Shown here piece by piece: positions 45,778 through 60,395 of a stretch of DNA of 64,000 bases. A model generated the notes under the pieces. The model was given only the letters and a program-made list of their open reading frames with translations. It had not been told where the DNA came from and did no database searches. The stretch comes from an uncultured Gammaproteobacteria bacterium (GTDB lineage Bacteria > Patescibacteriota > Patescibacteriia > JAHIZJ01), in assembly GCA_964594455.1 (NCBI GenBank), contig CAZQLY010000007.1, positions 13,586 to 77,585 of the forward strand. The letters are read 5' to 3'. Position numbers and translations under genes: made by a program. Position 1 is the stretch's first letter. Each line of letters begins with the position of its first letter.

Positions 45778-47835
45778 TTAATATACTGAAGTTGTTAAAG
45801 CCAAAATATCTTCTGATCCATCATTATCAACATCAGAGATCGTCAGTTGTACACCACCACGATATGATAAATCATAAGCAAAGAAGCCTGGCAACACCAT
45901 GTTCCCAAACCGGTCTAAGATACGCACGTGCGGACCGCCACCTGGTCCGGCACCGGTGATAATTTCATCCATACCGTCATTATTAACATCTGTTACTGCC
46001 ACGCTGACTCCGCCGCGAAACCGTTCGTCATAGGCAAAGAATCCAGCCTCGACGTTGCCGTCGCGATCAAAAACTCTGATATGCGGGCCGCCAGTATAAC
46101 CCGCTCCAGTGATTATTTCATTCTTGCCGTCTTTATCTACATCGCCCACGGTCACATTAACACCTCCGCGGAAATGCTCGGCATAGGCAAAGAAGCCAGG
46201 GTGTATTAAATTGCCCTGATAATCAAATATTCTTACGTGCGGGCCGCCACCCTGGCCAGTACCGGTTACTATTTCTAACTTACCGTTACGATATAATTCA
46301 CCCACTGCTAAATTAATGCCTTTATCATAATTGGATCCGTAGGGCTGGAATTCTTTGGTTAAAAAACCACTGCTGTTGTATATTTGCACCTTACCGCTCC
46401 AGCCAACAATGATCTCGTTGTTTCCGTCCTGATCTAAATCCTCTTTTAAGATTGTCAGCCCACCAGCATAATCACTGTTGTAAGTAAAGAAGCCATGGCG
46501 CACGGTATTGCCTAGCGGATCAAATGATTGGGCATAGGCGCCGTTAATATATTGCCCAGACTCAATTTCAAACTGTCGTTTAAGTAAGATTATTCCGTCG
46601 TGTCCGGCTAGTTGAACTGATGTTATAATTTCACCTGAATTAACCGTGGTATCCTGAGAGCCTTTTATCTTTTCATATCCGCCTCCCAGATTAACTGATC
46701 GGGTTTGGCCGGATGAATTGACTAACACTATTCCGTTCTGGAAATCACGACGGCAGACTCCTGAGCTCAAATCGCTGGTGCTTCCGCTGTCAACATTATA
46801 TGCTTCACCGGACGGATCTCCTAAAATCACCTGAAATTCGTCATACCACCACAGGGCGTTGTGCTGGATTGAACCTTTGTCATAACTAAAGAAACCGTCA
46901 TTCATCAGAGTGCTGGTTAAAGTATAGCGCATATTTTTATAATCTGTGGCGCTGCCAGTGCTGGATCTTCCGTTTATAATCACTAACGAAGGTAAAAAGC
47001 TTTGTTGAATCGCATCATAATATTTGTCCATGGCACCAGACCAGCCTCCGTCTAAGACAGAGGGAAATTCTTCTACTAACCTGCCATTAACACTGGAGAA
47101 ATACTGACCGCCACCATTACCTACTATTATAGCGCCATCGCCTTCTAACTCCCGCGATTTTTCTAAAAGATTACTCATTCCTTCACGCCAAGCACTGTCT
47201 AGAACGCTGCTGGTTTCGGCCACACCGTCACGATTTAAATCGATATCACCGTCGTTCAACCAGGAGATATCATTCCACATGTTGTCATAAAAAATTCCAT
47301 CCCAGTATCCGGTCGACATCACATTGTCATGCATGAATTGGGGTAAATAATTGTACCAGCGTTCGCTGTTGCTCCAGTCTCCCGTCGGGGTGACGTTAAT
47401 CATCTTGGTATTGGGCCAGAACACGACCGTATCTCCACTGGAATCTTTGAGCCACCAATCCTCTTGAAATCCTTGATACAGCTGATAGTGCGGATCATCC
47501 GTATCAGTGATCTCACCATATGAATTAGGTATTTCTTGTGATAAGACGTAGGCCAAAATAACTATATCTGAATTTAACCGCTTCAACTCCTGCAGCGCGC
47601 TGGGGCTGGTATATTGCAGTTCCAATCCTACTATGACCGTATCCCAGCGCGACAAGCTGGTTGCTTCTTCCATTGATAAGGTGGGCTGCAAGAACATGTT
47701 GGCCAGCCGAGGGTATTTATCAACCAGGGTTCTACTTTCAGAAGATCTTGTAAACAATATTAAACCGCCAATAGCTAATAATGCTATAGCAAATGTTAAA
47801 AAGTATCTATTTTTTTTCAGCCAGTAAAGATTCAT
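45778..47835 (-). CDS. membrane-anchored protein with N-terminal glycoside-hydrolase-like domain and C-terminal FG-GAP/VCBS repeats
   Basis: Four or more repeats of GxFxxxxxxxRGGVxVxVxDVDxDGxxEIITGAGxGGGPHVRIFD, characteristic of integrin-alpha-type beta-propeller blades. Confidence 0.6.
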   Translation of the reverse strand: MNLYWLKKNRYFLTFAIALLAIGGLILFTRSSESRTLVDKYPRLANMFLQPTLSMEEATSLSRWDTVIVGLELQYTSPSALQELKRLNSDIVILAYVLSQEIPNSYGEITDTDDPHYQLYQGFQEDWWLKDSSGDTVVFWPNTKMINVTPTGDWSNSERWYNYLPQFMHDNVMSTGYWDGIFYDNMWNDISWLNDGDIDLNRDGVAETSSVLDSAWREGMSNLLEKSRELEGDGAIIVGNGGGQYFSSVNGRLVEEFPSVLDGGWSGAMDKYYDAIQQSFLPSLVIINGRSSTGSATDYKNMRYTLTSTLMNDGFFSYDKGSIQHNALWWYDEFQVILGDPSGEAYNVDSGSTSDLSSGVCRRDFQNGIVLVNSSGQTRSVNLGGGYEKIKGSQDTTVNSGEIITSVQLAGHDGIILLKRQFEIESGQYINGAYAQSFDPLGNTVRHGFFTYNSDYAGGLTILKEDLDQDGNNEIIVGWSGKVQIYNSSGFLTKEFQPYGSNYDKGINLAVGELYRNGKLEIVTGTGQGGGPHVRIFDYQGNLIHPGFFAYAEHFRGGVNVTVGDVDKDGKNEIITGAGYTGGPHIRVFDRDGNVEAGFFAYDERFRGGVSVAVTDVNNDGMDEIITGAGPGGGPHVRILDRFGNMVLPGFFAYDLSYRGGVQLTISDVDNDGSEDILALTTSVY

Positions 47836-49027
47836 AAATCTTAATCAATTTATGATAATATTTTTCCGGACTGCGCTGCTGCACCAGTTGATGAGCTCGC
47901 TGACCCATTTCCTCCACCTTGTTTTTATCAGTAATTATTTTATTTATTTTTTCTCGCAAATCGTCAGCTGAACCAGTTTCAAATAAATAACCAGATTTGC
48001 CATCTTCTATCATTTCCGGTATGCCTCCGATTCTGGAGCCGATCACCGGCTTGCCTAGGCTATTTGCTTCCAATATTGTCAGCGGCTGGTTTTCATACCA
48101 CTCAGATGGGACCACTACAGTTAATGAATTTTTGATACTATCTTTGAGCGCCTCACCGGATTGATAGCCCAGGAATTTCACATTGCTGATCTTTTCCTGA
48201 GACACCTTCTTTTTTAATTCATCTTCCAGCGGCCCGGTCCCGACAATCTTAAATTGATAGTCTATCTCCTTGGCCGCTTCAATAAATGTCTTAATTCCTT
48301 TTTCTTGCGAGAGTCTCCCAAAATACAAAACATAGTTTCCAGGCGGATTATATTCAGCTTTCTGGGTATCAATAAAATTAGCCAAGTGCCTTATTTCAAT
48401 TATTGGCTCTTCCCACTCTCTAATCTTTTTGACTAAGAACTCGCTCGGGCTAATAAAAACATTGACGTTGTCTTCGTAAGCTTTAATAATTTTATGAAAA
48501 TACATTTCAATACAAGCCAATATTGAAGCCGGCAATGAATTTTTTAAACAGCGATTATTTATGGCCTGCCAATAATTGTAACCTTTGCATTTTTCACAAA
48601 CCTTACCCTGGGTAAAAAACAGATAGTTGGGGCAAAGCAGCTTATAATCGTGCAGAGTTAATATTGTCGGGATTGAATGTTTCTTCAGAGTTAGCAGGAC
48701 TGAAGGAGATATTTGGTGATAAATATTGTGAACGTGAGCAATATCAGGTTTTTCCTTTTTAATCAACTGGCTCAGCTTGCGCGCAGCCTCAAACGAATAC
48801 AGCATACGGCCGGCTGTTCTTAAGCCCTCTTTGTCAAACCTGACGTTTTCAAAATTAACCTTTGAAACAAAGTATTTTGAATACGGAGAAGGGTCATTCT
48901 TTTCATGTTGCATAGAAAAGACAACCACCTGGTGGGCATTTTTCTCCAGCAACTCTTTGATATCAAAAAAATGTTTCTCAGCTCCGCCTTTTACAAAGTA
49001 GAATTTGTTGATCAGTAATACCTTCAT
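47807..49027 (-). CDS. family-4 glycosyltransferase
   Basis: GT4 motif ENQPLTILEANSLGKPVIGSRIGGIPE, 406 aa. Confidence 0.8.
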   Translation of the reverse strand: MKVLLINKFYFVKGGAEKHFFDIKELLEKNAHQVVVFSMQHEKNDPSPYSKYFVSKVNFENVRFDKEGLRTAGRMLYSFEAARKLSQLIKKEKPDIAHVHNIYHQISPSVLLTLKKHSIPTILTLHDYKLLCPNYLFFTQGKVCEKCKGYNYWQAINNRCLKNSLPASILACIEMYFHKIIKAYEDNVNVFISPSEFLVKKIREWEEPIIEIRHLANFIDTQKAEYNPPGNYVLYFGRLSQEKGIKTFIEAAKEIDYQFKIVGTGPLEDELKKKVSQEKISNVKFLGYQSGEALKDSIKNSLTVVVPSEWYENQPLTILEANSLGKPVIGSRIGGIPEMIEDGKSGYLFETGSADDLREKINKIITDKNKVEEMGQRAHQLVQQRSPEKYYHKLIKIYESLLAEKK

Positions 49028-49106
49028 GTTTTTATTGTAACATTTTTAGAAACATATAAATATAGCAAAATATTATCATCCTGTCAATGCTAAGACGCTA
49101 ACAACC

Positions 49107-49134
49107 TTGACAAAATCCTGTTTTCGTGTACAAT
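49107..49134 (+). promoter_or_regulatory. near-consensus sigma70 promoter upstream of GC-rich gene
   Basis: TTGACA-N16-TACAAT, about 90 nt upstream of the AAAGGAGG SD and ATG at 49228. Confidence 0.45.
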
Positions 49135-49227
49135 ATACTGTTCTGTTTTCAGAACGTTGATTTCAAAATCCAAGGGTACTTGTGCCCTAAAAAACTTGAT
49201 TCAAGCCCTGCGCAAAGGAGGAATGCC

Positions 49228-50640
49228 ATGTCCGCAAACTCAAGGGTCAGGTGGTGGATGGTACTGCTAGCAGTACTGCTTTTTCTTCTACCTGCTTCCA
49301 TTTGGTTCGGCTGGCTCCTCCGGGGACCATCTGAACCACCGACTCGCCTCGAGACCCAGTTCACTGACACGTGCTTCTGGGATCCTGAGGCCGATCTGAA
49401 CTTCGGTACCGTGACAGTGGGGACAACAAACACTCTTCGTTTCCCGCTGTACAACGATTCCGACTCACGGATCGTGATTCATCTGTCAGCTTCGAGTGAT
49501 CAGTTCACTCTGGAGCCCAACGGTGGTGACTACACTATGCTCCCACAGCAGACTGTTGTCATCGCTGTTACTTTCTGTCCGGACACCTTAGGGCCTCAAC
49601 ACTGCCGTGTTTCCATGGGTCACCCCAGTCTGGATGAGATCATCTGTTTCGGCCTGGCCACGACTGGCCCGACTCGCAGCAAGTATGATCAGCCGTTCGA
49701 TACACATTCGATCTGGAATACCCCGATCGGCAGCGAGGCGGACTACGTTCTAGCTGGATTCAAGCCCGGGAAGTATATCGACATCGACCGTGACCACATC
49801 CTGAGCTCTGGCCAGCAACGTAAGCTCCTGGCTCACGAGTCGTGGCCAAACATCTGCGAGGGAGACAAATTCCTCTCCGATGTCTGGGTACCCGATGACT
49901 ATGTTGTGCCTTCCGATGGCAAGAACAACGCCGCCGCCTTCATCCTCCCGGATGGAGAGCATATTTACCAAGCCAATCCCATCTCACGGTGCGAAGAGGC
50001 TGGTCCAGTCTACGCTGGTTGGGCGGCAGTACCAGAGGCGGTGACCAGCATCTATGATGAAGGTCTCTATGGCGGTCATGGTGGCTCCAGTCTGTCCAGT
50101 ATCGGAGGCACTATTCGACTAGGCGAACTAACCTCAGACGAGCCGATTGGCCACGCTCTCAAGATTCTTGTTTTGGCGGCTCGCTACTGCTCTGACGAGG
50201 ATGGTGGCTTCCGCTGGCCGGCTTACCGGGCTGATGCTTACGCCCTCGACCCGGACAATCCCCTGAGGTACAACCAACTGGGTTCGGCTTCTCCGGCGGT
50301 AAAGATGGGATCGCTTCTAGCTGTCCCTGACTGGGTGGACCTCAATTCACTCGGTCTCCAGACGTACGCCGCCTGGAAAATCGCTGTGGCGCTCCAAGAC
50401 TACGGAGCGTACATAGTCGATGATTCGGCCTGGCACACATACTATCTCTGCGCTGAGCAGGGCGTGGGTCAGGAATTCCAGAATACTTACGATCTGGGCA
50501 TAGCCGCTCAAGCCGGTCCTTGGTATGACGACATGATGTGCCTTATCCAATGGCTGCATGTTGTCGACACCAATGGTCCCGACACCATTGGTGGTGGCGG
50601 CGCTCCTTGGAGACCGCTAGCGCCACCTATCGGCGACTGA
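49228..50640 (+). CDS. secreted protein with N-terminal anchor, Ig-like (ASPM/HYDIN-type) beta-sandwich and large C-terminal Trp-rich domain (GC-rich island)
   Basis: Start taken at the Met preceded by AAAGGAGG (the ORF table's 49126 start lies in AT-rich DNA without SD). Hydrophobic N-terminus WWMVLLAVLLFLLPASIWFGWLL. FGTVTVGTTNTLRFPLYNDSDSRIVIHL Ig-like motif. Visibly high GC. Confidence 0.6.
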   Translation: MSANSRVRWWMVLLAVLLFLLPASIWFGWLLRGPSEPPTRLETQFTDTCFWDPEADLNFGTVTVGTTNTLRFPLYNDSDSRIVIHLSASSDQFTLEPNGGDYTMLPQQTVVIAVTFCPDTLGPQHCRVSMGHPSLDEIICFGLATTGPTRSKYDQPFDTHSIWNTPIGSEADYVLAGFKPGKYIDIDRDHILSSGQQRKLLAHESWPNICEGDKFLSDVWVPDDYVVPSDGKNNAAAFILPDGEHIYQANPISRCEEAGPVYAGWAAVPEAVTSIYDEGLYGGHGGSSLSSIGGTIRLGELTSDEPIGHALKILVLAARYCSDEDGGFRWPAYRADAYALDPDNPLRYNQLGSASPAVKMGSLLAVPDWVDLNSLGLQTYAAWKIAVALQDYGAYIVDDSAWHTYYLCAEQGVGQEFQNTYDLGIAAQAGPWYDDMMCLIQWLHVVDTNGPDTIGGGGAPWRPLAPPIGD

Positions 50641-50658
50641 TTCGCTCTTTCCTTCCTC

Positions 50659-50692
50659 GGGCCAGAAGTTTCACGCTTCTGGCCCTTTTTTT
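50659..50692 (+). terminator. strong intrinsic terminator
   Basis: Perfect 10-bp stem gggccagaag-N7-cttctggccc followed by TTTTTTT. Confidence 0.7.
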
Positions 50693-50712
50693 ATTTACCT
50701 AGAGGTATTATT
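50688..50712. repeat. 25-nt inverted-repeat copy L (TTTTTATTTACCTAGAGGTATTATT)
   Basis: Exact reverse-complement match to 53776-53800. Partial similarity continues (tgagaggg vs agagagag). Immediately 3' of a GC-rich terminator hairpin in both copies. Confidence 0.6.
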
Positions 50713-50920
50713 TGAGAGGGACTAAAAGTATGAATCATAACAATATTACGTAATCTTTAGTCTCCGTAAATAACTTAGGCGGATATTTGAGATGCCGGAT
50801 CCCGGTCCGGCATGACGATGAGGGGTGTAAATAACCCTCGTGAAAACAATGTGCATGTTGACATTTTTCAATTTCTTCGTTAGAGTATTCAGATTTGGTA
50901 ATTTATAGTAAAATATACAT

Positions 50921-52114
50921 ATGAATATAGCTTTTATCACTCACGCTTTCCCCTACCCAGCTGAAAAAGACGGGCATACATTGATCGCCTACCAAATTAT
51001 AAAAGGATTAGCAGAGTACCATAAAATCTCGTTGTTTTGTTTCGGCGACAAAAATGACCAGATGAATATTGGTGCAATTAGCGATTTGGGAGTAAAAGTA
51101 AATATTTATGAAAGGCCAAAACGGTCCTTACTTTTTTATTATCTGTCCAGCATTTCCAAGAAACTTGCCTGGTTCCAATACCGTCTCTATACCAAAGAGA
51201 TGATTAATAAAGTTAAGGAAATAGATAATTCGTCTGAGTATGACATAATCTATATTCACTCGCCCTTTGTCTCGGCCTATCTGGGGCTGGTGAAAAATAA
51301 ACCAACTGTCTTGACCTATATTGATGCCTGGTCATCCTGGTACCAACAGTTCTACGATATTTCAAAAAACCCTCTCAAAAAGCTTCATTACCTTCAAGAA
51401 GGAAGAAAATCTCGACAACTGGAAAAAGACTTGTTACTCAAAGCCTACGCTTCAGTAGTCGTGTCCAATGTCGATAAAGAGATAATCATGAAACATTCTC
51501 CAGAAGCTAATATTGTGGTCATACCGAACGGAGTCGATCTGGATTATTTCCGACCATCTACTACCCCGCCCGATCCAGAACAAATTATTTTTAGCGGGAC
51601 AATGGATTACCCTCCCAACGTAAAAGCGGTTCTGGATTTCAAAGAAAAGATTTGGCCTAAATTAAAAAAAGAAAAACCAAATCTCAGCTGGTATATTGTA
51701 GGCAAAAATCCGACTCTGGACGTATTCGAACTTCAATCGCTGGACAATCAAATTACTGTTACTGGCTATGTCAAAGATATCAGGACACATCTCTGGCGCT
51801 CGGCAGTCTATTTATCGCCTCTATCGCTAGGCACTGGTTTTAAAAATAAGATTATTGAAGCTATGGCTTGCGGCAAAGCCATTGTGGCCAGCCCAGTCAG
51901 CTTGGCCGGCTTCCCAGTATCTGATGGTGAAAATGTTTTGATCGCTAATAATTCTCAGGAGTTTGCTGATAAAATACTCTATCTACTAAATAACCAAGAC
52001 AAACGACAAAAAATAGAATCAAGGGCTAGAACCTTTGCTGAAATGTATGACTGGTTTACCTCAGTACGCCAATACGAAAATCTAATGAAGCAGGCAGTTA
52101 AACATGACAAATAA
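50921..52114 (+). CDS. family-4 glycosyltransferase
   Basis: GT4 C-terminal region (KIIEAMACGKAIVASP), 397 aa, low GC. Confidence 0.8.
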   Translation: MNIAFITHAFPYPAEKDGHTLIAYQIIKGLAEYHKISLFCFGDKNDQMNIGAISDLGVKVNIYERPKRSLLFYYLSSISKKLAWFQYRLYTKEMINKVKEIDNSSEYDIIYIHSPFVSAYLGLVKNKPTVLTYIDAWSSWYQQFYDISKNPLKKLHYLQEGRKSRQLEKDLLLKAYASVVVSNVDKEIIMKHSPEANIVVIPNGVDLDYFRPSTTPPDPEQIIFSGTMDYPPNVKAVLDFKEKIWPKLKKEKPNLSWYIVGKNPTLDVFELQSLDNQITVTGYVKDIRTHLWRSAVYLSPLSLGTGFKNKIIEAMACGKAIVASPVSLAGFPVSDGENVLIANNSQEFADKILYLLNNQDKRQKIESRARTFAEMYDWFTSVRQYENLMKQAVKHDK

Positions 52115-53489
52115 CCCACCAAATGTTTTAAAACCCTTGTTGATCGTCACGGTATTGGCCATACCTATTTTGTTTTTTATAGCCCAAAATCCCAGCTGGC
52201 AAACTTTGTTACAAATCGCCTTTTTAGTGATTCTTGTTCCCCTTTTCTTAATCAGCGTAGAAATGGGTTTCTTGGCCTTGATTGTTCTTCGGCCGGCCAT
52301 GGATTTATTTAGTCAGGTTGAATTTCTAAAACTGGGTAATTTCTCCTTAAATCTCTCTTCTACAGTCAGCATCTTAGCTATTGCCTGGATTGCATACATT
52401 ATTCTCAAGAATCGTCAGCAAGTTTGGCGGCGTCCGCTATTTTATCCAATTTTAGTTTTCTTTGTGATAAGCCTAGCTTCCATCTTCTATACTTATGATT
52501 TTGCTAATACTTTGACCGAGATTGTACGCAGTGCCAGTATCTTTTTCGTCTATCTTCTGGCCAGCATGGTCATTAATTCACTAGAGCGTTTTAAACGCTT
52601 CCTAAAGGCAGTAGGTTTTTCTCTAGTTGCGCCGGTATTTTTTGCTATTGTGCAATTGATCAGCCAAACCGGATTAAGCTTTGCTGGAGTAAATAACAGG
52701 CTCTATGGCACGTTTGGCCATCCCAATGCTTTGGCTTTTTACATGGTTTTAACTATCGGAATTTTTATCACTTACTTCTTTAGCTTGCCTCTCGAGAAAA
52801 GAAATAAAAGTATTTTAGCAATTCCAGCCATACTATTTTTTATTCTGCTTCTCACTTACACCCGTGGAGCTTGGCTTGGTTTGGGAGCATTCTTGATACT
52901 AATAGGCTTCTTTCATTATCGAAAAGCAATCATAGCTTTGATTGTTGTAGCTGTATTAGCAATCGGACTAGCACCCACTGTAAATAATTTCCTTTTTGAT
53001 GAATTCAATATCAATCTATCAAATGTACCAGTAATCCAAAGAATAACTGACGAATCAAGCGAAGAAAGCTCTATTGAGTGGCGACTCGAAGTTTGGTCAG
53101 ATATGAGGCGCCGAATCGTTGAGCAGCCTTATTTTGGATATGGATTAGGATCCTTCCCTGTCCTACGCGAACAGTCAGTCAAAGGTTTCTTTGAAAGCAC
53201 TGACGCCCATAATGATTATCTCCGATACATTATTGAGTTAGGTTTTGTTGGCCTGTTAGCTTACTGCTTTTTGATTTTCAAAAACATTGGTAACCTATTC
53301 TACCGTTATATCAAATCTCAAACTCGTGAGACTAAAGCCTGGCTGCTGGGCGGATGCACACTAGCTGTTTCATTTGCTATCATGAGTTTTTATGACAACA
53401 TTATGCAAGGTACTGCTGTGATGTGGTTATTTTGGTCATTAATGGCTGTAGTCTACAACTATTCAAAATTCATGCAAAAAAATAGTTAG
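52104..53489 (+). CDS. O-antigen ligase/polymerase-like (Wzy_C family) polytopic membrane protein
   Basis: About 11 TM helices with extracytoplasmic loop containing the R-x-xx-W / HN-x-Y..E pattern (TDAHNDYLRYIIELGFVG). 461 aa. Overlaps the GT4 gene by 11 nt. Confidence 0.7.
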   Translation: MTNNPPNVLKPLLIVTVLAIPILFFIAQNPSWQTLLQIAFLVILVPLFLISVEMGFLALIVLRPAMDLFSQVEFLKLGNFSLNLSSTVSILAIAWIAYIILKNRQQVWRRPLFYPILVFFVISLASIFYTYDFANTLTEIVRSASIFFVYLLASMVINSLERFKRFLKAVGFSLVAPVFFAIVQLISQTGLSFAGVNNRLYGTFGHPNALAFYMVLTIGIFITYFFSLPLEKRNKSILAIPAILFFILLLTYTRGAWLGLGAFLILIGFFHYRKAIIALIVVAVLAIGLAPTVNNFLFDEFNINLSNVPVIQRITDESSEESSIEWRLEVWSDMRRRIVEQPYFGYGLGSFPVLREQSVKGFFESTDAHNDYLRYIIELGFVGLLAYCFLIFKNIGNLFYRYIKSQTRETKAWLLGGCTLAVSFAIMSFYDNIMQGTAVMWLFWSLMAVVYNYSKFMQKNS

Positions 53490-53567
53490 CTAAATAACCT
53501 CGCCTTCCCTTCTCAAGAGTAATGCACTAGGTTAAGTACACAGCTCAGAATAATAGTACTGTCATTT

Positions 53568-53619
53568 TCGGACTCCCGCCTCGACTCGCCCGGCTCATCG
53601 GGCGAGGCGGGTGATCCGA
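53568..53619. repeat. GC-rich imperfect palindrome (tcggaCTCCCGCCTCGactcGCCCG-gctcat-CGGGCGAGGCGGGtgaTCCGA)
   Basis: Long stem-loop inside a 280-nt non-coding stretch, flanked by ttttcgga / tccgaaaat. Confidence 0.45.
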
Positions 53620-53775
53620 AAATCCCGTTCAAATAGCAAATTAGTAAAACCTCTCTTACCCGCCTCCAGTCAGCAAGAGTAACGTTTCAAATACAGTATT
53701 GGTCCTGCGGCTGGGTTATTTACAGTGGCTAAAGATTACATAAGTGGCTATTATCTATACTTTTATTCTCTCTCT

Positions 53776-53800
53776 AATAATACCTCTAGGTAAATAAAAA
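53776..53800. repeat. 25-nt inverted-repeat copy R (AATAATACCTCTAGGTAAATAAAAA)
   Basis: Reverse complement of 50688-50712. Abuts the terminator at 53801-53840. Confidence 0.6.
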
Positions 53801-53867: not shown

Positions 53868-54707
53868 CTACTCCTCGCAGAGTCTGGCGTTGCCATCCTC
53901 CGGGAGTTCAATGAACAACTTTCCGTAGCTGAAGGGCCAGGCTTCGTGCCCTTCATAGTCCTTAAGCCGGAGGTACAGTCCACTACATCGACCACAGGGG
54001 TCGACCGTGAACGTAACCGACTCAGTCGCCTTGGGAACATTCTTGACTTCCGGATCTGCTCCCCGACGACATTCGTAGCCACAGAGGTACAGAGTGACAG
54101 GGCCTACGACATTCAGTTTCGGCGGGTGGACCTCGTTGTAAAGATTCACCTTGGCCGTAATCTGATACTGACCGCCGTTCCAGACGATCCTCCAGATACC
54201 GTACGTCATGACCGTTTCCCCATCCGCCTTGGGCTGGACCGAGGGTTCGGCCGTTGCCGCCTGATTGGTCTGGGGAACCGTTCTCGGAACCGTCCGAGCA
54301 CCCGTATTGCTCACGCTGCTCGTCCGAGCGGTATTGCTCGTCTTGCGCGTGACCGGAGCCGTCTTGATCACCGGCGGTTCGGGAACAGCGTGTTCGCCGA
54401 CCGTACCGGGACCGTTGTCCTCGCGAACAACCTTCTGCTCGGATTCGGGCTTGGGCTGTCCGGCGGTAGTGACGGAATCGTCCGGAGCTCCGGTCTCGTC
54501 CTTCTTCTCGACGACCTTCTTCTGCTCATCCTGGGCGACCGGCTCGTCGGCGGGCTTCTTCTGCTCGTCGGCGGGTGTGGTGGCTTCCTTTTTGAGCGTG
54601 ACCTTTTCCTTGGGCGCCGGATCGTCGTCGTCCGCCATGACCATCGGGGACACGGTGAACATCATCGCAACGAACAGCGCCAGCATGATCCACAGAGACT
54701 TCTTCAT
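53868..54707 (-). CDS. secreted protein: signal peptide, Pro/Glu/Lys-rich linker, Cys-rich C-terminal domain (GC-rich island)
   Basis: MKKSLWIMLALFVAMMFTVSPMVMA signal. AAGGAGG SD. Six C-terminal Cys (CGYECRRG..CGRCSG..LCEE). Antisense ORFs 53844-54893 and 54265-55005 judged spurious (GC-rich DNA). Confidence 0.55.
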   Translation of the reverse strand: MKKSLWIMLALFVAMMFTVSPMVMADDDDPAPKEKVTLKKEATTPADEQKKPADEPVAQDEQKKVVEKKDETGAPDDSVTTAGQPKPESEQKVVREDNGPGTVGEHAVPEPPVIKTAPVTRKTSNTARTSSVSNTGARTVPRTVPQTNQAATAEPSVQPKADGETVMTYGIWRIVWNGGQYQITAKVNLYNEVHPPKLNVVGPVTLYLCGYECRRGADPEVKNVPKATESVTFTVDPCGRCSGLYLRLKDYEGHEAWPFSYGKLFIELPEDGNARLCEE

Positions 54708-54767
54708 TTCGACACCCCTCCTTCAATTGGGTATTGTTCGCTTCTTGCTTCAGGTCACGACCGGCGC

Positions 54768-55640
54768 TCAACCACCGATCTCAATCCCGTACAGTCGGTC
54801 GTCTTCGGGCCAGAGATTGGCGATCGCATCCAGCTGGTTGAGCATGAATGTGAATACGGTCCAGCCTCCGCCGAGATCGACCAGGTTCATTAGTTCGGTG
54901 GCATGTTCGAAATCGCCAGGCAAACCAACGTACACGCCGGACCGCAGTTCAGTACCGTCGGCCAGTTGCAGCCTCAGATACGTAACCGCGCCCTTGGCGA
55001 CGTAGAACTTGGCGGTCCACATGCCGTCCTCCCAATACGTCGTATGGGGGGCAAACCGGAATGTAGTCCAGGTTCCCATCCAGAATACCGGAACGTCGGG
55101 ATCAGCCGGATTGTTCATGTAGCCCTCGGGAAGAGAATTCCCGGTGTACCACACTTGTACTTCCACCAGATCGTCGACATCCGTCATCGGGTCAATCATC
55201 AACTGTCCGTCTTCGACGTAGAGCGAGAATTCCCGATAGACTTCGAAGTCTGAGGCGTTGATCGCGTTCAGTTCGACTCCGTTGACGGAGATATCGAGCA
55301 TTCGGTGATACCGATTGTCCGAATCCCTCCGCCAGAAGCCGACGCTGAACTTCTCGTTTCCCCAGACCTGTCGATCGAACGTACCGACGACCTCGCCGCC
55401 CTGAAAAGTGCCAAACAGGATCATGATGTTGGGGTCCTGCAGGTATCCCGGGACGACTGAGCCGGAGATGTAGACTTCCTCACCATCCAGCGCCATCGGC
55501 GACAAAAGGGTGATGCTGAACTCCGCATTGGTCTCCTCCTGGTTGCCGGGGTTGGTGATATCCCACGAGTCGCGGGAACACCCGGATGCCAGACCGAGGA
55601 TAGCCAGCACGGCCAGAATTGCCAGTTTGCTAAAACGCAT
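54768..55640 (-). CDS. lipoprotein of unknown function (GC-rich island)
   Basis: Lipobox LGLASGC. GGGAGG SD 9 nt upstream. 290 aa beta-rich. Confidence 0.55.
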   Translation of the reverse strand: MRFSKLAILAVLAILGLASGCSRDSWDITNPGNQEETNAEFSITLLSPMALDGEEVYISGSVVPGYLQDPNIMILFGTFQGGEVVGTFDRQVWGNEKFSVGFWRRDSDNRYHRMLDISVNGVELNAINASDFEVYREFSLYVEDGQLMIDPMTDVDDLVEVQVWYTGNSLPEGYMNNPADPDVPVFWMGTWTTFRFAPHTTYWEDGMWTAKFYVAKGAVTYLRLQLADGTELRSGVYVGLPGDFEHATELMNLVDLGGGWTVFTFMLNQLDAIANLWPEDDRLYGIEIGG

Positions 55641-55718
55641 CGTCTCTTTCCTCCCTTGAAAATGGGCATCTAGGAGTATATCCGGGGCATCCGGATAACT
55701 CCGGATGCCCCACCCCTG

Positions 55719-57533
55719 CTACCAGCTGTAGTCGAATCCGACCTTGACCCAATGCCGATCGGTCTTGTAATCATGACCGGCGATCAGATCGTGGTCTTCG
55801 CCATTCGGGATGAACTTGTACGACCCTTTGAACCGCCAATAGCGATTGGGCCGGTACTCAAATCCGATTCCCGGTCCGGACCATTCGAAGGCCCAGATAT
55901 CCGAATCATACTCCCACCAATCGTATGAGCCATAGAAGACCCACTTGACGGTGGGCTTGAAGCCGATCCGGGCTTCGATCACCTGCATGGTGTCGGCGAC
56001 AAACGTCTCCGTTCGACCGTCGAAGTGCCGCGACTGCTCCTTTCGCAGGATCTGGTTGTATCCGATCCGCGAGTAGAACCAGCCGGGTTCCAGAGTCAGG
56101 TTGGCATCGAGGTTGCGCTCGAGATTGGTGCCAGCTTTGTAGTTGACCTCGTAGTAACCCCGAGCCGGGGTAACTCCGAGCACTCGGCCGTACCAGCCAT
56201 ACCCATCGACATACACGCCGTCTTCTTCCACATGCGTCTTCGTCGGAGAGACAACTGTGTAGTTGAGATAGGTACGCTGCCCGGCACCATACCATCCGCC
56301 TCCTTCGAGGTAGACGGCGGTACCAAGGTCGTTGCCGTAGATGTTGGAGCGTAAACCGCCTCGGTATTCACCGATGTGGTTCGCATCCGCGATCGCTTGC
56401 TCGACCCGCAGTACGGCGGCCAGATCTCGGAACCAGAAAGTTCCGTCCCAGCCGCTCAGACGAGGCAGCCATTCGATGCCAGAGTAGGCGCTCCATTGTT
56501 CGTCGCCGCCTCCTTGAGAATGGAATCCGTCGACCCAGAGAACACCGCCCTGGACAAAGTCCCGAGCATGTTCCACTTCTTTCTTCTTCTTGACTGGCGG
56601 AGTGGGCGGCGGCGTATAACCAACACGCTCTTCCACCTGTGTCTCAGCCTCATACTCCAGAGGCAGCGCAACGAAGGCGCCGTTCTGGCAGTCCAAGAAC
56701 TGATAGAGGAAATGCCTGTAGCCGCCATTATCCACATAGGGATATTCGACGGCCAGAAGCGAGTCAACCGGTTCGAGGTTCCGCACGTCCTTCCAGTAGC
56801 AGACCGTGGTATCCCAGACCTTGACTTCCTGGCTCGTTCTTCCACCGAAGACGAGCCCGTCGAGAACCAGAGGCCGATCACAAGTTGAGTAGATCCATAC
56901 CGTATCGGGCAGGCTTGCCTCGACCAGCGAGATCCACATCTGTCGCACCTTCTCGGGCACGTTCATCAGTTCCACCTGCTTGCGCAGAGGAATGCCCGCT
57001 GGATCTCCGAGAACGAAGTTCCACCGGTTGATCTGAGTGTCCGTTTCGGTTACGAAGACTTCTTCGCCCTGATAGACCGTGTTACGGTCCACCTGGTTCC
57101 ACTTCTTCAGGGTGTCGACGGGAACGCCGACTTCCTGAGCGATCTTGCCCCACGATTCGCCCTTCCGGATGGATCGTGATGCGGGTAGTTCAATGGCTTT
57201 GGGCTTAGCTCTGCGCTCGACGCGCAGATTTGTCCCTGACACCTTTCTCCAGTCATCACCATCGCAGTATGCGAGAACGGTGTAATAGCTGAAGTAGGCA
57301 TCAGCGCTCGTCTCTTCCAAGACGAAGTGGCTGGTCGCCGAAACAAGTTCCGACTTCACGCCACCGTTGAGCTGGATGAGTCCCACTTCGATCATGCCAT
57401 CGGCACGATTCGACTTGAGCTCCTTCGTGACGATCTGATTGTCTTCCAACGGAGGCTGAATGCAATCAGCCAGCGCCAGGTTGACTCCCAGCAGAGCCAC
57501 GAACACGATCACCAGACACAGCATTTTCCTCAT
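55719..57533 (-). CDS. outer-membrane-type protein: signal peptide, LysM domain, C-terminal beta-barrel ending in aromatic residue (GC-rich island)
   Basis: LysM-like segment GESWGKIAQEVGVPVDTLKKWNQVDRNTVYQGEEVFV. C-terminal ~270 aa of alternating aromatic/polar beta-strand pattern ending ..KVGFDYSW (typical OMP C-terminal signature). GGAGG SD. Confidence 0.6.
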   Translation of the reverse strand: MRKMLCLVIVFVALLGVNLALADCIQPPLEDNQIVTKELKSNRADGMIEVGLIQLNGGVKSELVSATSHFVLEETSADAYFSYYTVLAYCDGDDWRKVSGTNLRVERRAKPKAIELPASRSIRKGESWGKIAQEVGVPVDTLKKWNQVDRNTVYQGEEVFVTETDTQINRWNFVLGDPAGIPLRKQVELMNVPEKVRQMWISLVEASLPDTVWIYSTCDRPLVLDGLVFGGRTSQEVKVWDTTVCYWKDVRNLEPVDSLLAVEYPYVDNGGYRHFLYQFLDCQNGAFVALPLEYEAETQVEERVGYTPPPTPPVKKKKEVEHARDFVQGGVLWVDGFHSQGGGDEQWSAYSGIEWLPRLSGWDGTFWFRDLAAVLRVEQAIADANHIGEYRGGLRSNIYGNDLGTAVYLEGGGWYGAGQRTYLNYTVVSPTKTHVEEDGVYVDGYGWYGRVLGVTPARGYYEVNYKAGTNLERNLDANLTLEPGWFYSRIGYNQILRKEQSRHFDGRTETFVADTMQVIEARIGFKPTVKWVFYGSYDWWEYDSDIWAFEWSGPGIGFEYRPNRYWRFKGSYKFIPNGEDHDLIAGHDYKTDRHWVKVGFDYSW

Positions 57534-57661: not shown

Positions 57662-58567
57662 TTATTCAAAGTTTCGAAATTCCTCTTCTGGTCCATTCCA
57701 GACCGACTTTCCCTTCTGAACTTCGCTGGCATTCCTGACGTGGTCGTGAAATGTATTTATTTTATTACGATCATCCGAAACCACCCTCACTCTATTCGAC
57801 ATATTTTTTCTACCCGGTATCTCTTCTATATCATCAACATTATTTTTGTTAGGAATATAATTTTCAACCATGTAGTCATTTTTGTCAGCCTCACTCTGAT
57901 CTCTTAATTCCGCAGAACCGTCAGTCGGCTCATCATCACGAGATACTCTAGAATTATCCCTACCTTGTTCACGAAAACCCTGATAGATATGAAATCCGGC
58001 AGATCCGCCAAAGCCAATCAGTAATCCGGCAATTATATTCATGGGGATATTAGGACGAGCCGGATCAGTCTCAGTAAACGGATAGTCAACAACCTTTAAG
58101 ACAATGGAATTGCCACCACCAACATATTCAACACCATTCTCGGACAACACAATAGCTAAAGCCTTAGCCAGTTCAGTAGCTCGCTCAGGTTCAGTGTTGT
58201 AAACTGAAACCTTTACCATGCCAACATCAGCCAAGACTCTGGTTTCAATCTGTTTTTTCCATTCTTGGCGTCTGGCTTCCTCATTCTCAGGAAAGCTGAA
58301 ATCTGAAGACAAATAACCAGAGTTTAACACCTTATCATAGAAAGACGTGGTATAGATAACCTGGCCTAAAGAAAGGCTTAGTCTTTCAGCTGACTTGGCA
58401 GCAGCATAAGCATCTAGATTCGTATCCTTCTCGATCACTAAAAGTGAAAAAGAAGAACGGTACTCAGGCTTTTGGATTAAAGTGACAATTACACTTAATC
58501 CAACAACCACTAAAGTTACAAGCAGAATTGATATCCAATTTTCTTTAATTTTAGCTAAATAATTCAT
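57662..58567 (-). CDS. Wzz-like polysaccharide chain-length determinant (PCP) with extended acidic C-terminal tail
   Basis: N-terminal TM (ISILLVTLVVVGLSVIVTLI), periplasmic helical domain, second TM (IIAGLLIGFGGSAGFHIY), low GC. Confidence 0.65.
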   Translation of the reverse strand: MNYLAKIKENWISILLVTLVVVGLSVIVTLIQKPEYRSSFSLLVIEKDTNLDAYAAAKSAERLSLSLGQVIYTTSFYDKVLNSGYLSSDFSFPENEEARRQEWKKQIETRVLADVGMVKVSVYNTEPERATELAKALAIVLSENGVEYVGGGNSIVLKVVDYPFTETDPARPNIPMNIIAGLLIGFGGSAGFHIYQGFREQGRDNSRVSRDDEPTDGSAELRDQSEADKNDYMVENYIPNKNNVDDIEEIPGRKNMSNRVRVVSDDRNKINTFHDHVRNASEVQKGKSVWNGPEEEFRNFE

Positions 58568-58901: not shown

Positions 58902-60395
58902 TTATTTTATAGTAAATATTTTTAGCTTTGACAAAGCCTTCTGTGCTAGGACCATCCTTTCTTTGCTCTGAGCATAAAAAGTATAAGTGGGATCGCCCTT
59001 TTTGATCCTGTCGCCTATTCTTTTGTGAATGTGAATACCGGCTAATTTTTCTGAAGGTGCTCCCAAAAGTCTAGCAATATCATCAATCGCTATATCATTC
59101 ACCTCATTTATCTTGCCGTTCTTTTTGGCAAAGTAACGTTTTTTGATGGCGCTTAATGTAACATCATCTGATTTAATATTTGGATTGCCACCTTGAAGCT
59201 TAATTATTTTTTGCATTTTTTCCCAGGCCTGACCCGAGTCTAAAATCTTTTGAGCCAATTTTCTTCCTTGTCCGGCCTTAGCTTTACCGCACAGCTCAAA
59301 TAATTCGCCAGCCAAGAGAATTGATTTTTTCTCTAGATCCATCGGCCTAAGTGGATGTCTTTGTAATACTCTTAAGGCGTCCCGAGCTTCCAGAGCGGGT
59401 CCGATTCCCCGGCCAACTGGTTCTCGAGCTTCAACCATTTTTACTTTCACTTTCATCCCAAATCTTTTCCCTAGATAGAGAAACTTTCTCTCTACATCCC
59501 AGGCTAGTTTTAAATTTGGAATTTTCGTAGTCGGACCAACCGGCATATCAATAACCAAATATTTAATACCCATGGCAACTTTTTTGGCCATGATGCTGAC
59601 TATCATTTTATTGTATGGCTCTATGCCTAAAGGATGCGAGGCTCTGATAATCCGATCGTCGGCCGGGGCGACATTTAGACCACCTCCCCACACCAAACAA
59701 CAATTGTTTTTCTTAACAAACTCTTTTATTTTTTTGATCGGATGGCCGACGGGCGCCAGCATCTCCATAGTATCCGCAGTTCCGGCTGGTGAAGTTACTG
59801 CTCGGGACGACGTCTTGGGAATAATTAATCCTGTAGATGCCACAATCGGGATAACAATCATTGAGGTACGATTACCAGCCAGACCCCCCACCGAATGTTT
59901 GTCTACAACCTTGCCACGAAATCTAACCTGTTCGCCTGTTTCAGCCATAGCTTTGGTCAGATAGTACAGCTCTTCCTTGGAATAATGACGAGCAAAGCTG
60001 CTGGCCACAAAATAGCTGATCTCGCTCCGGCCCAACCTGCGGTTAACTATGTCCTTGACAATCGAGCGTATTTCCTTATAGGTCAAGCTTTTGCCGAGCA
60101 ACTTCTTGATAATTGCCTTGATAGAAGCCGGGCGCGACAATACTTTAACCTGCAAAATCTCATCCTTCTTTATTTTGTGCTCCTCCCAGACTTCTCGAAA
60201 CAGACCTATTTCTCCCGGTTTAACTTTTCGGCTGGTAAAATCAGCTTCGGCCACAACTTTATTCTTTCCCCAGCGCAATTCCAGATCATCACCGGGATGC
60301 ACTCCAAAACGTTCAGCCTCAGAGTTGCGCAATACGGCAACGTAGGGACCATCCGCTCGAAAGTCTAATTTTTTTGTCTTTAAAAAGAATGGCAT
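58902..60395 (-). CDS. deoA: AMP phosphorylase (thymidine-phosphorylase family, archaeal-type DeoA)
   Basis: N-terminal extension plus glycosyl-transferase family 3 core (SVGGLAGNRTS, TSSRAVTSPAGTADT). Operon with RuBisCO and R15P isomerase. Confidence 0.75.
   Translation of the reverse strand: MPFFLKTKKLDFRADGPYVAVLRNSEAERFGVHPGDDLELRWGKNKVVAEADFTSRKVKPGEIGLFREVWEEHKIKKDEILQVKVLSRPASIKAIIKKLLGKSLTYKEIRSIVKDIVNRRLGRSEISYFVASSFARHYSKEELYYLTKAMAETGEQVRFRGKVVDKHSVGGLAGNRTSMIVIPIVASTGLIIPKTSSRAVTSPAGTADTMEMLAPVGHPIKKIKEFVKKNNCCLVWGGGLNVAPADDRIIRASHPLGIEPYNKMIVSIMAKKVAMGIKYLVIDMPVGPTTKIPNLKLAWDVERKFLYLGKRFGMKVKVKMVEAREPVGRGIGPALEARDALRVLQRHPLRPMDLEKKSILLAGELFELCGKAKAGQGRKLAQKILDSGQAWEKMQKIIKLQGGNPNIKSDDVTLSAIKKRYFAKKNGKINEVNDIAIDDIARLLGAPSEKLAGIHIHKRIGDRIKKGDPTYTFYAQSKERMVLAQKALSKLKIFTIK

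Follow-up and report, generated by a model that had tools for sequence, protein, structure and literature searches.

The gene at positions 49228-50640 (plus strand) of the stretch analysed here encodes, on balance, a surface-held protein whose C-terminal module would cut polysaccharide, either the product of the Wzy-pathway locus in which the gene stands or a glycan of a partner cell. The stretch, called the window below, is 64,000 nt of a metagenome bin from the candidate phyla radiation (CPR), namely C7:13586-77585 of bin G000 (1.34 Mb, 58 contigs, 42.6% GC). The 470-aa coding sequence (P0001; GC 0.56) has a 92% identical orthologue in a sister strain represented by the Logan contig L009, whose DNA is 86-87% identical. 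We base the polysaccharide-cleaving reading on the domains with which relatives of the C-terminal module are joined, its relatives in phage tails, its conserved acidic and basic residues, its gene neighbourhoods and the exchange of the gene, in one genus, for a gene of the GHL15 family. The gene stands in one and the same slot in five genera of a single CPR family, with its GC excess kept throughout while four-fold sites between genera are saturated, so it is an old, conserved member of its locus and not a recent insert.

The AlphaFold (AF2) model of the full-length protein, with a predicted local distance difference test score (pLDDT) of 92, consists of a helix (aa 4-31), a disordered linker (aa 35-48), a beta-sandwich (aa 54-145) and a compact C-terminal domain. 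The hydrophobic helix belongs to a predicted N-terminal signal-anchor, aa 1-34 (49228-49329, plus strand). Orthologues from other genera begin instead with lipoprotein signals (LSSC, LAGAC, LNTAC), and one of them lacks the immunoglobulin (Ig)-like domain; the common theme would be a C-terminal domain tethered on the outer face of the membrane. The Ig-like sandwich (49387-49662, plus strand) is of the ASH/PapD/MSP type. Its profile matches are weak and none reaches the curated cut-off of PF15780, PF22073 or NF012200: Pfam gave Cep192_D4 at E 2.3e-7 (31.4 bits against a cut-off of 35.5) and ASH at E 7e-5 (23.4 against 27), and NCBIfam gave choice-of-anchor D at E 2e-4 (21.9 bits against 45). 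Its fold is nevertheless that of the HYDIN, CEP192 and bacterial choice-of-anchor D domains. A Foldseek search of the Protein Data Bank (PDB) matched it to HYDIN (2ys4/2e6j) at E ~1e-4 to 4e-5, with a template-modelling (TM) score, normalised by the target, of 0.60-0.66 and a root-mean-square deviation of 2.8-3.0 over 94-99 columns, and to CEP192 (9fh8) at E 2e-5, and it superposes on solved ASH/PapD-like domains as a seven-to-eight-stranded beta-sandwich. Whereas the HYDIN and CEP192 domains are ciliary or centrosomal parts, here the sandwich would serve as an extracellular spacer. A reading made earlier from the sequence alone (below, the sequence-only reading) had proposed an anchored protein with a HYDIN-type Ig-like sandwich and a Trp-rich C-terminal domain of about 330 aa and of unknown function. 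The helix of the AF2 model and the HYDIN and CEP192 matches bear out the anchor and the sandwich, and the domain is indeed about 325 aa long, but its Trp enrichment is modest (11 Trp in 325 aa, 3.4%).

The C-terminal domain (aa 146-470; 49663-50637, plus strand), a putative polysaccharide-cleaving module, was modelled on its own with a pLDDT of 96.4 and a predicted TM score of 0.94, as a beta-rich subdomain joined to an alpha/beta subdomain. It had no match in Pfam even at E 10, no family in NCBIfam, no match in a PDB sequence search with a 48-sequence profile and none in a Foldseek search of the PDB (best E 1.3, TM <0.15), and the full-length model retrieved from the PDB only matches to the Ig domain. 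By these four routes it resembles no characterised glycoside hydrolase (GH) or polysaccharide lyase (PL) family, and it showed no similarity to known muramidase, amidase or transglycosylase families. The structure prediction from which the sequence-only reading had hoped for a choice between hydrolase or lyase and adhesin returned a confident fold but no PDB neighbour.

The domain is nonetheless one of a large family. A profile search of 1.84 billion representatives, counted at the 50% cluster level, found 3,408 clusters at E <=1e-3 and 1,194 at E <=1e-30. Some relatives carry two or three copies. Many relatives are joined to CBM6, CBM9, CBM35, CBM4_9, ricin-B, F5/8-C, PA14, fn3, FG-GAP and GDSL (SGNH) esterase domains, and further to dockerin, RTX, GH26 and type IX secretion system (T9SS) tails, so that carbohydrate-binding modules (CBMs) and secretion signals accompany the domain in the modular fashion of carbohydrate-active enzymes (CAZymes). 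Thirteen polar or aromatic positions show little or no variation among 70 diverse members: R150, S161, W163, N164, D187, N233, R254, R297, E300, H309, W330, D336 and Y395.

The domain also occurs in phages. Searches of predicted viral structures matched it to the minor tail protein of Gordonia phage Guillaume, to a "parallel beta-helix repeat" protein and to two others (TMq 0.65-0.74, E 1e-13 to 1e-19); the PHROG 17388 family, "minor tail protein", matched at E 3.6e-12, and tblastn found five Gordonia phages with 25.6% identity over 98% of the domain. In phage Forza gp90 (985 aa) the homologue lies in the middle of the protein, whose gene is in the structural module. The phage domains (PHROG 17388, Forza gp90, Guillaume), which we compare with tail-associated depolymerase or enzymatic domains, are homologous to ours over the whole domain at 18-26% identity; they differ in being the middle parts of virion proteins of 750-985 aa, and they are likewise uncharacterised.

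The genes around the domain point in the same direction. The locus reads GT4, a DUF11 protein, GHL15/FG-GAP, GT4a, the gene 49228-50640, GT4b, Wzy, p279, p290, p604 (with LysM) and Wzz. Its AT-rich members, assigned by Pfam and by synteny with L009, G001, G002, G003, G005 and G006, are GHL15/FG-GAP (45778-47835, minus strand), GT4a (47807-49027, minus), GT4b (50921-52114, plus) and Wzy (52104-53489, plus); Wzz (57662-58567, minus) belongs to the same conserved locus. Exopolysaccharide loci regularly include glycanase genes (PMC4928890, PMC9894940). PslG, the PelA hydrolase domain, AlgL and BcsZ are examples in which the gene of a secreted or tethered enzyme likewise sits among glycosyltransferase (GT), Wzy and Wzz genes, and by analogy our protein may process the polymer of its own locus as they do. 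Unlike them, its C-terminal domain has no sequence or fold relation to GH39, GH166, PL5 or GH8 and its activity is only predicted, its host is a CPR bacterium, and its gene falls in a compositional and expression class apart from its neighbours. In genus g6 the slot holds a GC-rich lipoprotein gene of the GHL15 family (G005:C5:78295-79500, Pfam E 1e-14), led by a Shine-Dalgarno (SD) sequence and with a promoter-like site of its own, which is a non-orthologous replacement of the gene 49228-50640. GHL15 (PF14885) is cited in PMC5765458 as one of Naumoff's hypothetical TIM-barrel glycoside hydrolase families. A second GHL15 gene stands two genes away in every genome. Our domain has no GHL15 match and its model is not a TIM barrel, so GHL15 is an analogue by position and not a homologue.

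Several points weigh against cleavage of a polysaccharide. The family has no member of known activity, nor can a catalytic dyad be pointed to. A module that binds sugar and leaves it uncut would agree equally with so many invariant Arg, Asn, Trp and Tyr residues, and the phage label "minor tail protein" is a positional one that could mean receptor binding. Among six neighbourhoods of homologues outside the CPR, only two are polysaccharide-synthesis loci, where the homologue lies at the edge of a Wzx/Wzy cluster (in one more it lies beside GH36 and GH5 genes), and two hold CHAP, SH3 (SH3_3) or Amidase_2 genes, which fits a cell-wall substrate. Finally, an Arg precedes a conserved Cys at the position of residue 209 (window 49852-49854) in 36 of 47 aligned family members, and in 67 of 70 in the wider set, but I, Q, T, E or V stands there in the whole of the CPR clade; since this otherwise conserved R209 was lost, activity or specificity may have changed in the clade.

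These points lead to two other views of the domain. It might be a non-catalytic module that binds a glycan or a receptor and acts as an adhesin to the cell's own matrix or to a host cell. Episymbiosis is common among CPR bacteria, and the homologues in phage minor tail proteins, the tether through an Ig-like spacer and the many invariant aromatic, Arg and Asn residues would all suit such a role. We nevertheless think it improbable, because binding in the relatives is usually the task of separate modules (CBMs, ricin-B, F5/8-C, PA14), as is customary where a catalytic part is joined to binding parts, because invariant Asp, Glu and His residues are present, and because the slot is occupied in one genus by GHL15, a predicted hydrolase. 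Alternatively the domain could be a hydrolase of the cell wall, acting on peptidoglycan or a secondary wall polymer for the cell's own remodelling or for attack on a host. Phage tail-associated enzymes often open the cell wall, and the two outside neighbourhoods with CHAP, SH3_3 and Amidase_2 genes and the LysM domain of the neighbouring p604 would agree with this. However, the 25 commonest partner families include no LysM, SH3 or PG_binding fusion, the modules that do occur as partners typically go with soluble or matrix polysaccharides, and the known muramidase, amidase and transglycosylase families show no similarity, so we give this view slightly less credit than the adhesin.

We therefore return to a polysaccharide-cleaving enzyme, whose activity and substrate we infer. 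In such a protein a membrane anchor and a short linker would be followed by an ASH/PapD-like Ig spacer and then by a catalytic module of 325 aa, which would most likely cleave polysaccharide as a hydrolase or a lyase. Its substrate could be the polymer of the surrounding Wzy/Wzz/GT4 locus, whose chains it would trim, release or process, or else a glycan belonging to a partner cell.

The gene is a self-contained unit of GC-rich DNA, as the sequence-only reading had described it. GC is 0.53-0.58 in 500-nt windows across 49250-50749 and 0.36-0.39 on both sides; the open reading frame (ORF) stands at 0.56 and its flanks at about 0.39. GC at the first, second and third codon positions (GC1/GC2/GC3) is 0.61/0.47/0.61, as against 0.43-0.50/0.28-0.40/0.34-0.44 in the flanking genes, 64% of its two-fold codons end in C (26-40% in the neighbours), and CTN codons make up 96% of its Leu codons (32-67%). 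The promoter, the strong SD and the 10-bp-stem terminator proposed earlier are all present and all conserved in L009. The predicted sigma-70-type promoter, TTGACA-N16-TACAAT (49107-49134, plus strand), agrees with the consensus at 11 of 12 positions, and its counterpart in L009 is TTGACA-16-TATAAT; promoter-like sites number 9 in the region, with 2.5 expected from shuffles. The SD, AAAGGAGG, lies at 49214-49221, 6 nt 5' of the ATG at 49228. The predicted intrinsic, Rho-independent terminator (50659 to ~50692-50694, plus strand) is GGGCCAGAAG-loop-CTTCTGGCCC followed by a T7 run, with a GC-rich stem of 10-11 bp and a 5-nt loop. The gene would accordingly be transcribed from its own promoter, translated by way of a strong SD and closed by its own terminator. 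A longer frame has a GTG start at 49126, which lies inside the promoter and is not conserved. The 5' leader of ~93 nt (49135-49227, plus strand) contains two short hairpins (49139-49156, 49173-49189), both of whose stems are kept in L009, one of them through a G.U to G-C change. The fold of the leader is not significant (z = -1.04), and a search of Rfam for a riboswitch or other known RNA matched neither the leader nor the repeat described below. A divergent, TG-extended promoter-like site, TTGACA-17-TATATT (49059-49087, minus strand), faces the GT4a gene, and its -35 element is kept in L009.

A second GC-rich block (53868-57533, minus strand) in the same locus and of the same compositional class consists of p279, p290 (with a lipoprotein signal) and p604. 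The sequence-only reading took the two blocks to be parts of one foreign functional set, split by or independently inserted around native GT4 and Wzy genes. What speaks for a recent set of this kind is the atypical GC and codon usage common to both blocks, an inverted repeat at both of their inner borders and the absence of the gene from all 34 other families of the class examined. Comparison with related genomes contradicts it. In L009 the gene order and the GC steps are the same, and divergence is alike in the GC-rich and the AT-rich parts. The order GHL15-GT4-[gene]-GT4-Wzy-(p279)-p290-p604-Wzz is kept in four further genomes from three other genera of the same CPR family, across which the orthologues are 46-57% identical in amino acids and the locus neighbours 45-59%, with the GC excess conserved. 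The gene is at the same place in L009, G001, G002, G003 and G006, and other genes fill the slot in G005 and G004; in genus g5 it is an unrelated secreted ORF of 210 aa. The slot between the two GT4 genes can thus be refilled by other secreted genes. No integrase or transposase was found in or beside the two blocks, and L009 lacks the repeat at either site, whereas five unrelated loci have it. We regard a recent foreign set as very improbable. The proposed check of synteny accordingly found a GC-rich gene conserved in its slot but no sign of recent insertion. The earlier reading had also said that low-GC homologues in the CPR and an unelevated GC would speak against it; GC is elevated, and CPR homologues exist but are GC-rich themselves.

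An assembly chimera of the metagenome bin may be set aside as having a negligible chance. The bin does have short contigs of ~60% GC that resemble contamination, but the same junctions, order and GC steps recur in six independent assemblies (L009, G001, G002, G003, G005, G006).

An older foreign origin of the gene is plausible, given its distribution in one family and the position of its clade among sequences from outside the CPR. In a tree of 122 domains all six sequences of the CPR family fall in one clade, with a support of 97 in the Shimodaira-Hasegawa-like approximate likelihood ratio test (SH-aLRT); the clade also holds two sequences named Patescibacteria and three unnamed ones, and is nested among sequences of other bacteria. 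The tree agrees with a single ancient gain and vertical inheritance thereafter. An ancestor of one CPR family would have acquired the gene, probably from a source beyond the CPR, and vertical descent would since have kept it in a fixed slot of the locus that is open to other secreted genes as replacements. Amelioration of acquired islets (Lawrence and Ochman 1997) is cited in a survey of horizontal gene transfer in Patescibacteria (PMC12455944). Our gene resembles such islets in its atypical GC and codon usage, its one-family distribution and its nesting among other phyla. It is unlike ameliorating islets in that its GC excess has not decayed despite saturation of synonymous sites between genera and is common, along with strong SD sites, to about 10% of the genes. 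Of the features of a recent island, base composition and codon usage are indeed atypical, but presence is not patchy and there are no empty sites among L009 and G001-G006, nor does the gene have mobility genes or flanking repeats of its own (there is no integrase or transposase, and the repeat is separate and missing in L009).

Gene GC in the whole bin is bimodal, with a main mode at ~41% and a second hump at 51-59%. These statistics come from a simple longest-ORF call and not from a gene finder, so that some frames in GC-rich DNA are spurious, and they leave out the short contigs C15, C18, C21, C27, C36, C44 and C48 (58-69% GC), which are probably contamination. ORFs of at least 50% GC number 112 of 1,130 and lie dispersed on all the large contigs. 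Of the GC-rich ORFs 62.5% have a strong six-base SD before a start, and of the AT-rich ones 4.6% (internal controls 4.5% and 1.5%), and the 16S rRNA still ends in CCUCC; together with the bimodal GC, this contrast points to two gene classes that may differ in their mode of expression. The relative synonymous codon usage of the gene 49228-50640 correlates with that of the GC-rich class on other contigs at r = 0.73, with the 53868-57533 genes at r = 0.59 and with the flanks at r = -0.05. The proposed codon-usage comparison thus does show the resemblance in composition to the second block that had been claimed, but the likeness is not specific, as about 110 genes across the genome are alike.

The GC excess is also unlikely to be a fading trace of a donor. 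GC3 exceeds that of the flanks by 0.2-0.3 in every genome for the orthologues of the gene, p290 and p604, while between genera four-fold sites at conserved residues are saturated (identity 0.26-0.35 observed, 0.26-0.31 expected). Because the excess persists at saturated sites, we infer that a fading memory of the donor cannot explain it and that a continuing force or repeated replacement is needed. High GC is a lasting trait of a class of genes found throughout the genome and not the mark of a recent transfer. Translational selection for expression level was rejected as an explanation of the high GC3, since the highly expressed EF-Tu, ribosomal-protein, RpoB/C and GroEL genes have a GC3 of 0.23-0.40. 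A crude hydrophobicity test gave no enrichment of secreted proteins in the GC-rich class (0.32 against 0.36). Two matches to the cyclic di-GMP-II riboswitch occur in regions rich in GC-rich genes: one at G000:C4:80357-80476 (minus strand) scores 60.2 bits, above the gathering score of 53.5, and one at G000:C12:19478-19595 (plus strand), with a GC-rich lipoprotein gene and a gene of 1016 aa downstream of it, scores 45 bits and so falls below it.

The repeat to which the sequence-only reading had drawn attention is real, but it does not mark an island junction. TTTATTTACCTAGAGGTATTATT at 50690-50712 (plus strand) recurs exactly at 53776-53798 (minus strand), where zero such pairs are expected by chance. 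The similarity 3' of both terminators is ~100 nt long, not 25, and belongs to a mosaic. Copy 1 (50695-50878, plus strand; head TTACCTAGAGGTATTATT...) begins right after the terminator T-run and is separate from the gene unit; L009 has 22 nt in its place. Copy 2 (53471-53795, minus strand), inverted relative to copy 1, has the head, a 72-nt stem module and the hpA palindrome, and lies between the p279 terminator, which it follows, and the Wzy stop, which it abuts; L009 has 36 nt there. At both sites the alignment with L009 breaks right after the terminator TTTTTAT, and as L009 is without both copies the repeat is not an island border. The last Wzy codons (53470-53489) differ from L009 exactly where copy 2 abuts, and its insertion or an associated rearrangement appears to have rewritten the Wzy C-terminus.

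The repeat is present at five loci beyond the two in the window. A stretch of 141 nt in copy 1 matches C6:69473-69613 with 100% identity, and since orthologous DNA of the two strains is 86% identical, the repeat has spread recently. Longer versions of up to 323 nt occur on C1, C5, C11 and C12. The pieces of the mosaic are a head (TTTACCTAGAGGTATTATT...), a 40-nt palindrome and 72-nt modules closed by ATAACCCGCC...GGCGGGTTAT, of which there are 12 at 7 loci, all intergenic; nhmmer placed the module of copy 2 at C7:67241-67309. Six of seven head-bearing copies lie 3' of GC-rich genes, presumably because those genes carry hairpin-plus-T-run terminators. A scan of 596 Gb of genomes with the repeat head gave single chance matches only and was uninformative.

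These properties (multiple copies, intergenic position, palindromic modules, presence that differs between strains) are those of repetitive extragenic palindromic elements and bacterial interspersed mosaic elements (REP/BIME) or of miniature inverted-repeat transposable elements (MITE), which are alike also in their strictly intergenic position just after terminators and in variable module content. Unlike REP/BIME, the modules are longer (~72 nt, with a 10-12 bp stem ATAACCCGCC...GGCGGGTTAT) and low in copy number. The repeat after the terminator would thus be a separate mosaic element of recent spread. Neither terminal inverted repeats nor target duplications were found at the two window sites. 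An integron cassette or attC reading of the modules was rejected: their stems do have AAC...GTT ends, but there are no cassette arrays and no IntI (TIGR02249 matched nothing but Xer-like genes in the genome, at 126 bits at best where the cut-off is 265), and the gene is served by a predicted promoter of its own. The GC-rich, REP-like palindrome of ~40 nt, CCCGCCTCGACTCGC...GCGAGGCGGG, has 13 copies in the genome, alone or as a module of the mosaic repeat, at window 53568-53619 and at C1:47776, C1:121749, C2:25752, C4:117782, C5:42282, C5:120171, C6:72107, C9:1858, C10:5078, C11:11035, C12:17708 and C14:11003. Homologues of the Y1 transposase (PF01797) above cut-off lie at G000:C4:115931-116167, C5:94662-94916 and C10:42657-42836, the C5 copy between 114-nt direct repeats (94296-94409 and 95115-95227). 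By analogy they are possible mobilisers of hairpin repeats. Origin of the repeat from an IS200/IS605-derived element with a TTAC target is only a lead; the bin has Y1 genes, and no TnpB was found in it.

Further genes of the region may be mentioned. The 604-aa p604 (55719-57533, minus strand) has a signal peptide, LysM and a weak LptD-like C-terminal match (E 1.3e-3). Directly after the polysaccharide locus, here and in relatives, stand AMP phosphorylase and a form II/III-type RuBisCO (58902-60395 and beyond), the nucleotide-salvage pair typical of CPR and DPANN.

A bolder combination of these results, which we put forward only tentatively, is that the 325-aa domain founds a new CAZyme family with a fold new to the PDB, and that secreted bacterial proteins in their thousands, along with tail proteins of actinophages, have it in common. 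In this CPR family it would moreover belong to a standing second class of GC-rich, SD-dependent, monocistronic and self-terminated genes, whose composition would be actively kept up, through mRNA-level selection or biased gene conversion, and would not be a fading trace of transfer.

For work on such genomes the locus is a cautionary case, in that compositional "islands" with repeats at their edges may look freshly inserted and yet be old residents. It is also a clean syntenic test case of how a minority of genes stays GC-rich and SD-led beyond neutral decay in an AT-rich and largely SD-less genome. The C-terminal domain itself is a concrete target for enzyme discovery, with ~3,400 clusters, a confident model, no Pfam model, no solved relative and relatives in phage tails, and both the domains joined to it and the genes beside it are of the kind that accompanies a glycan-cleaving enzyme. 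If its activity were assigned, thousands of proteins would gain an annotation and CAZy might gain a family.

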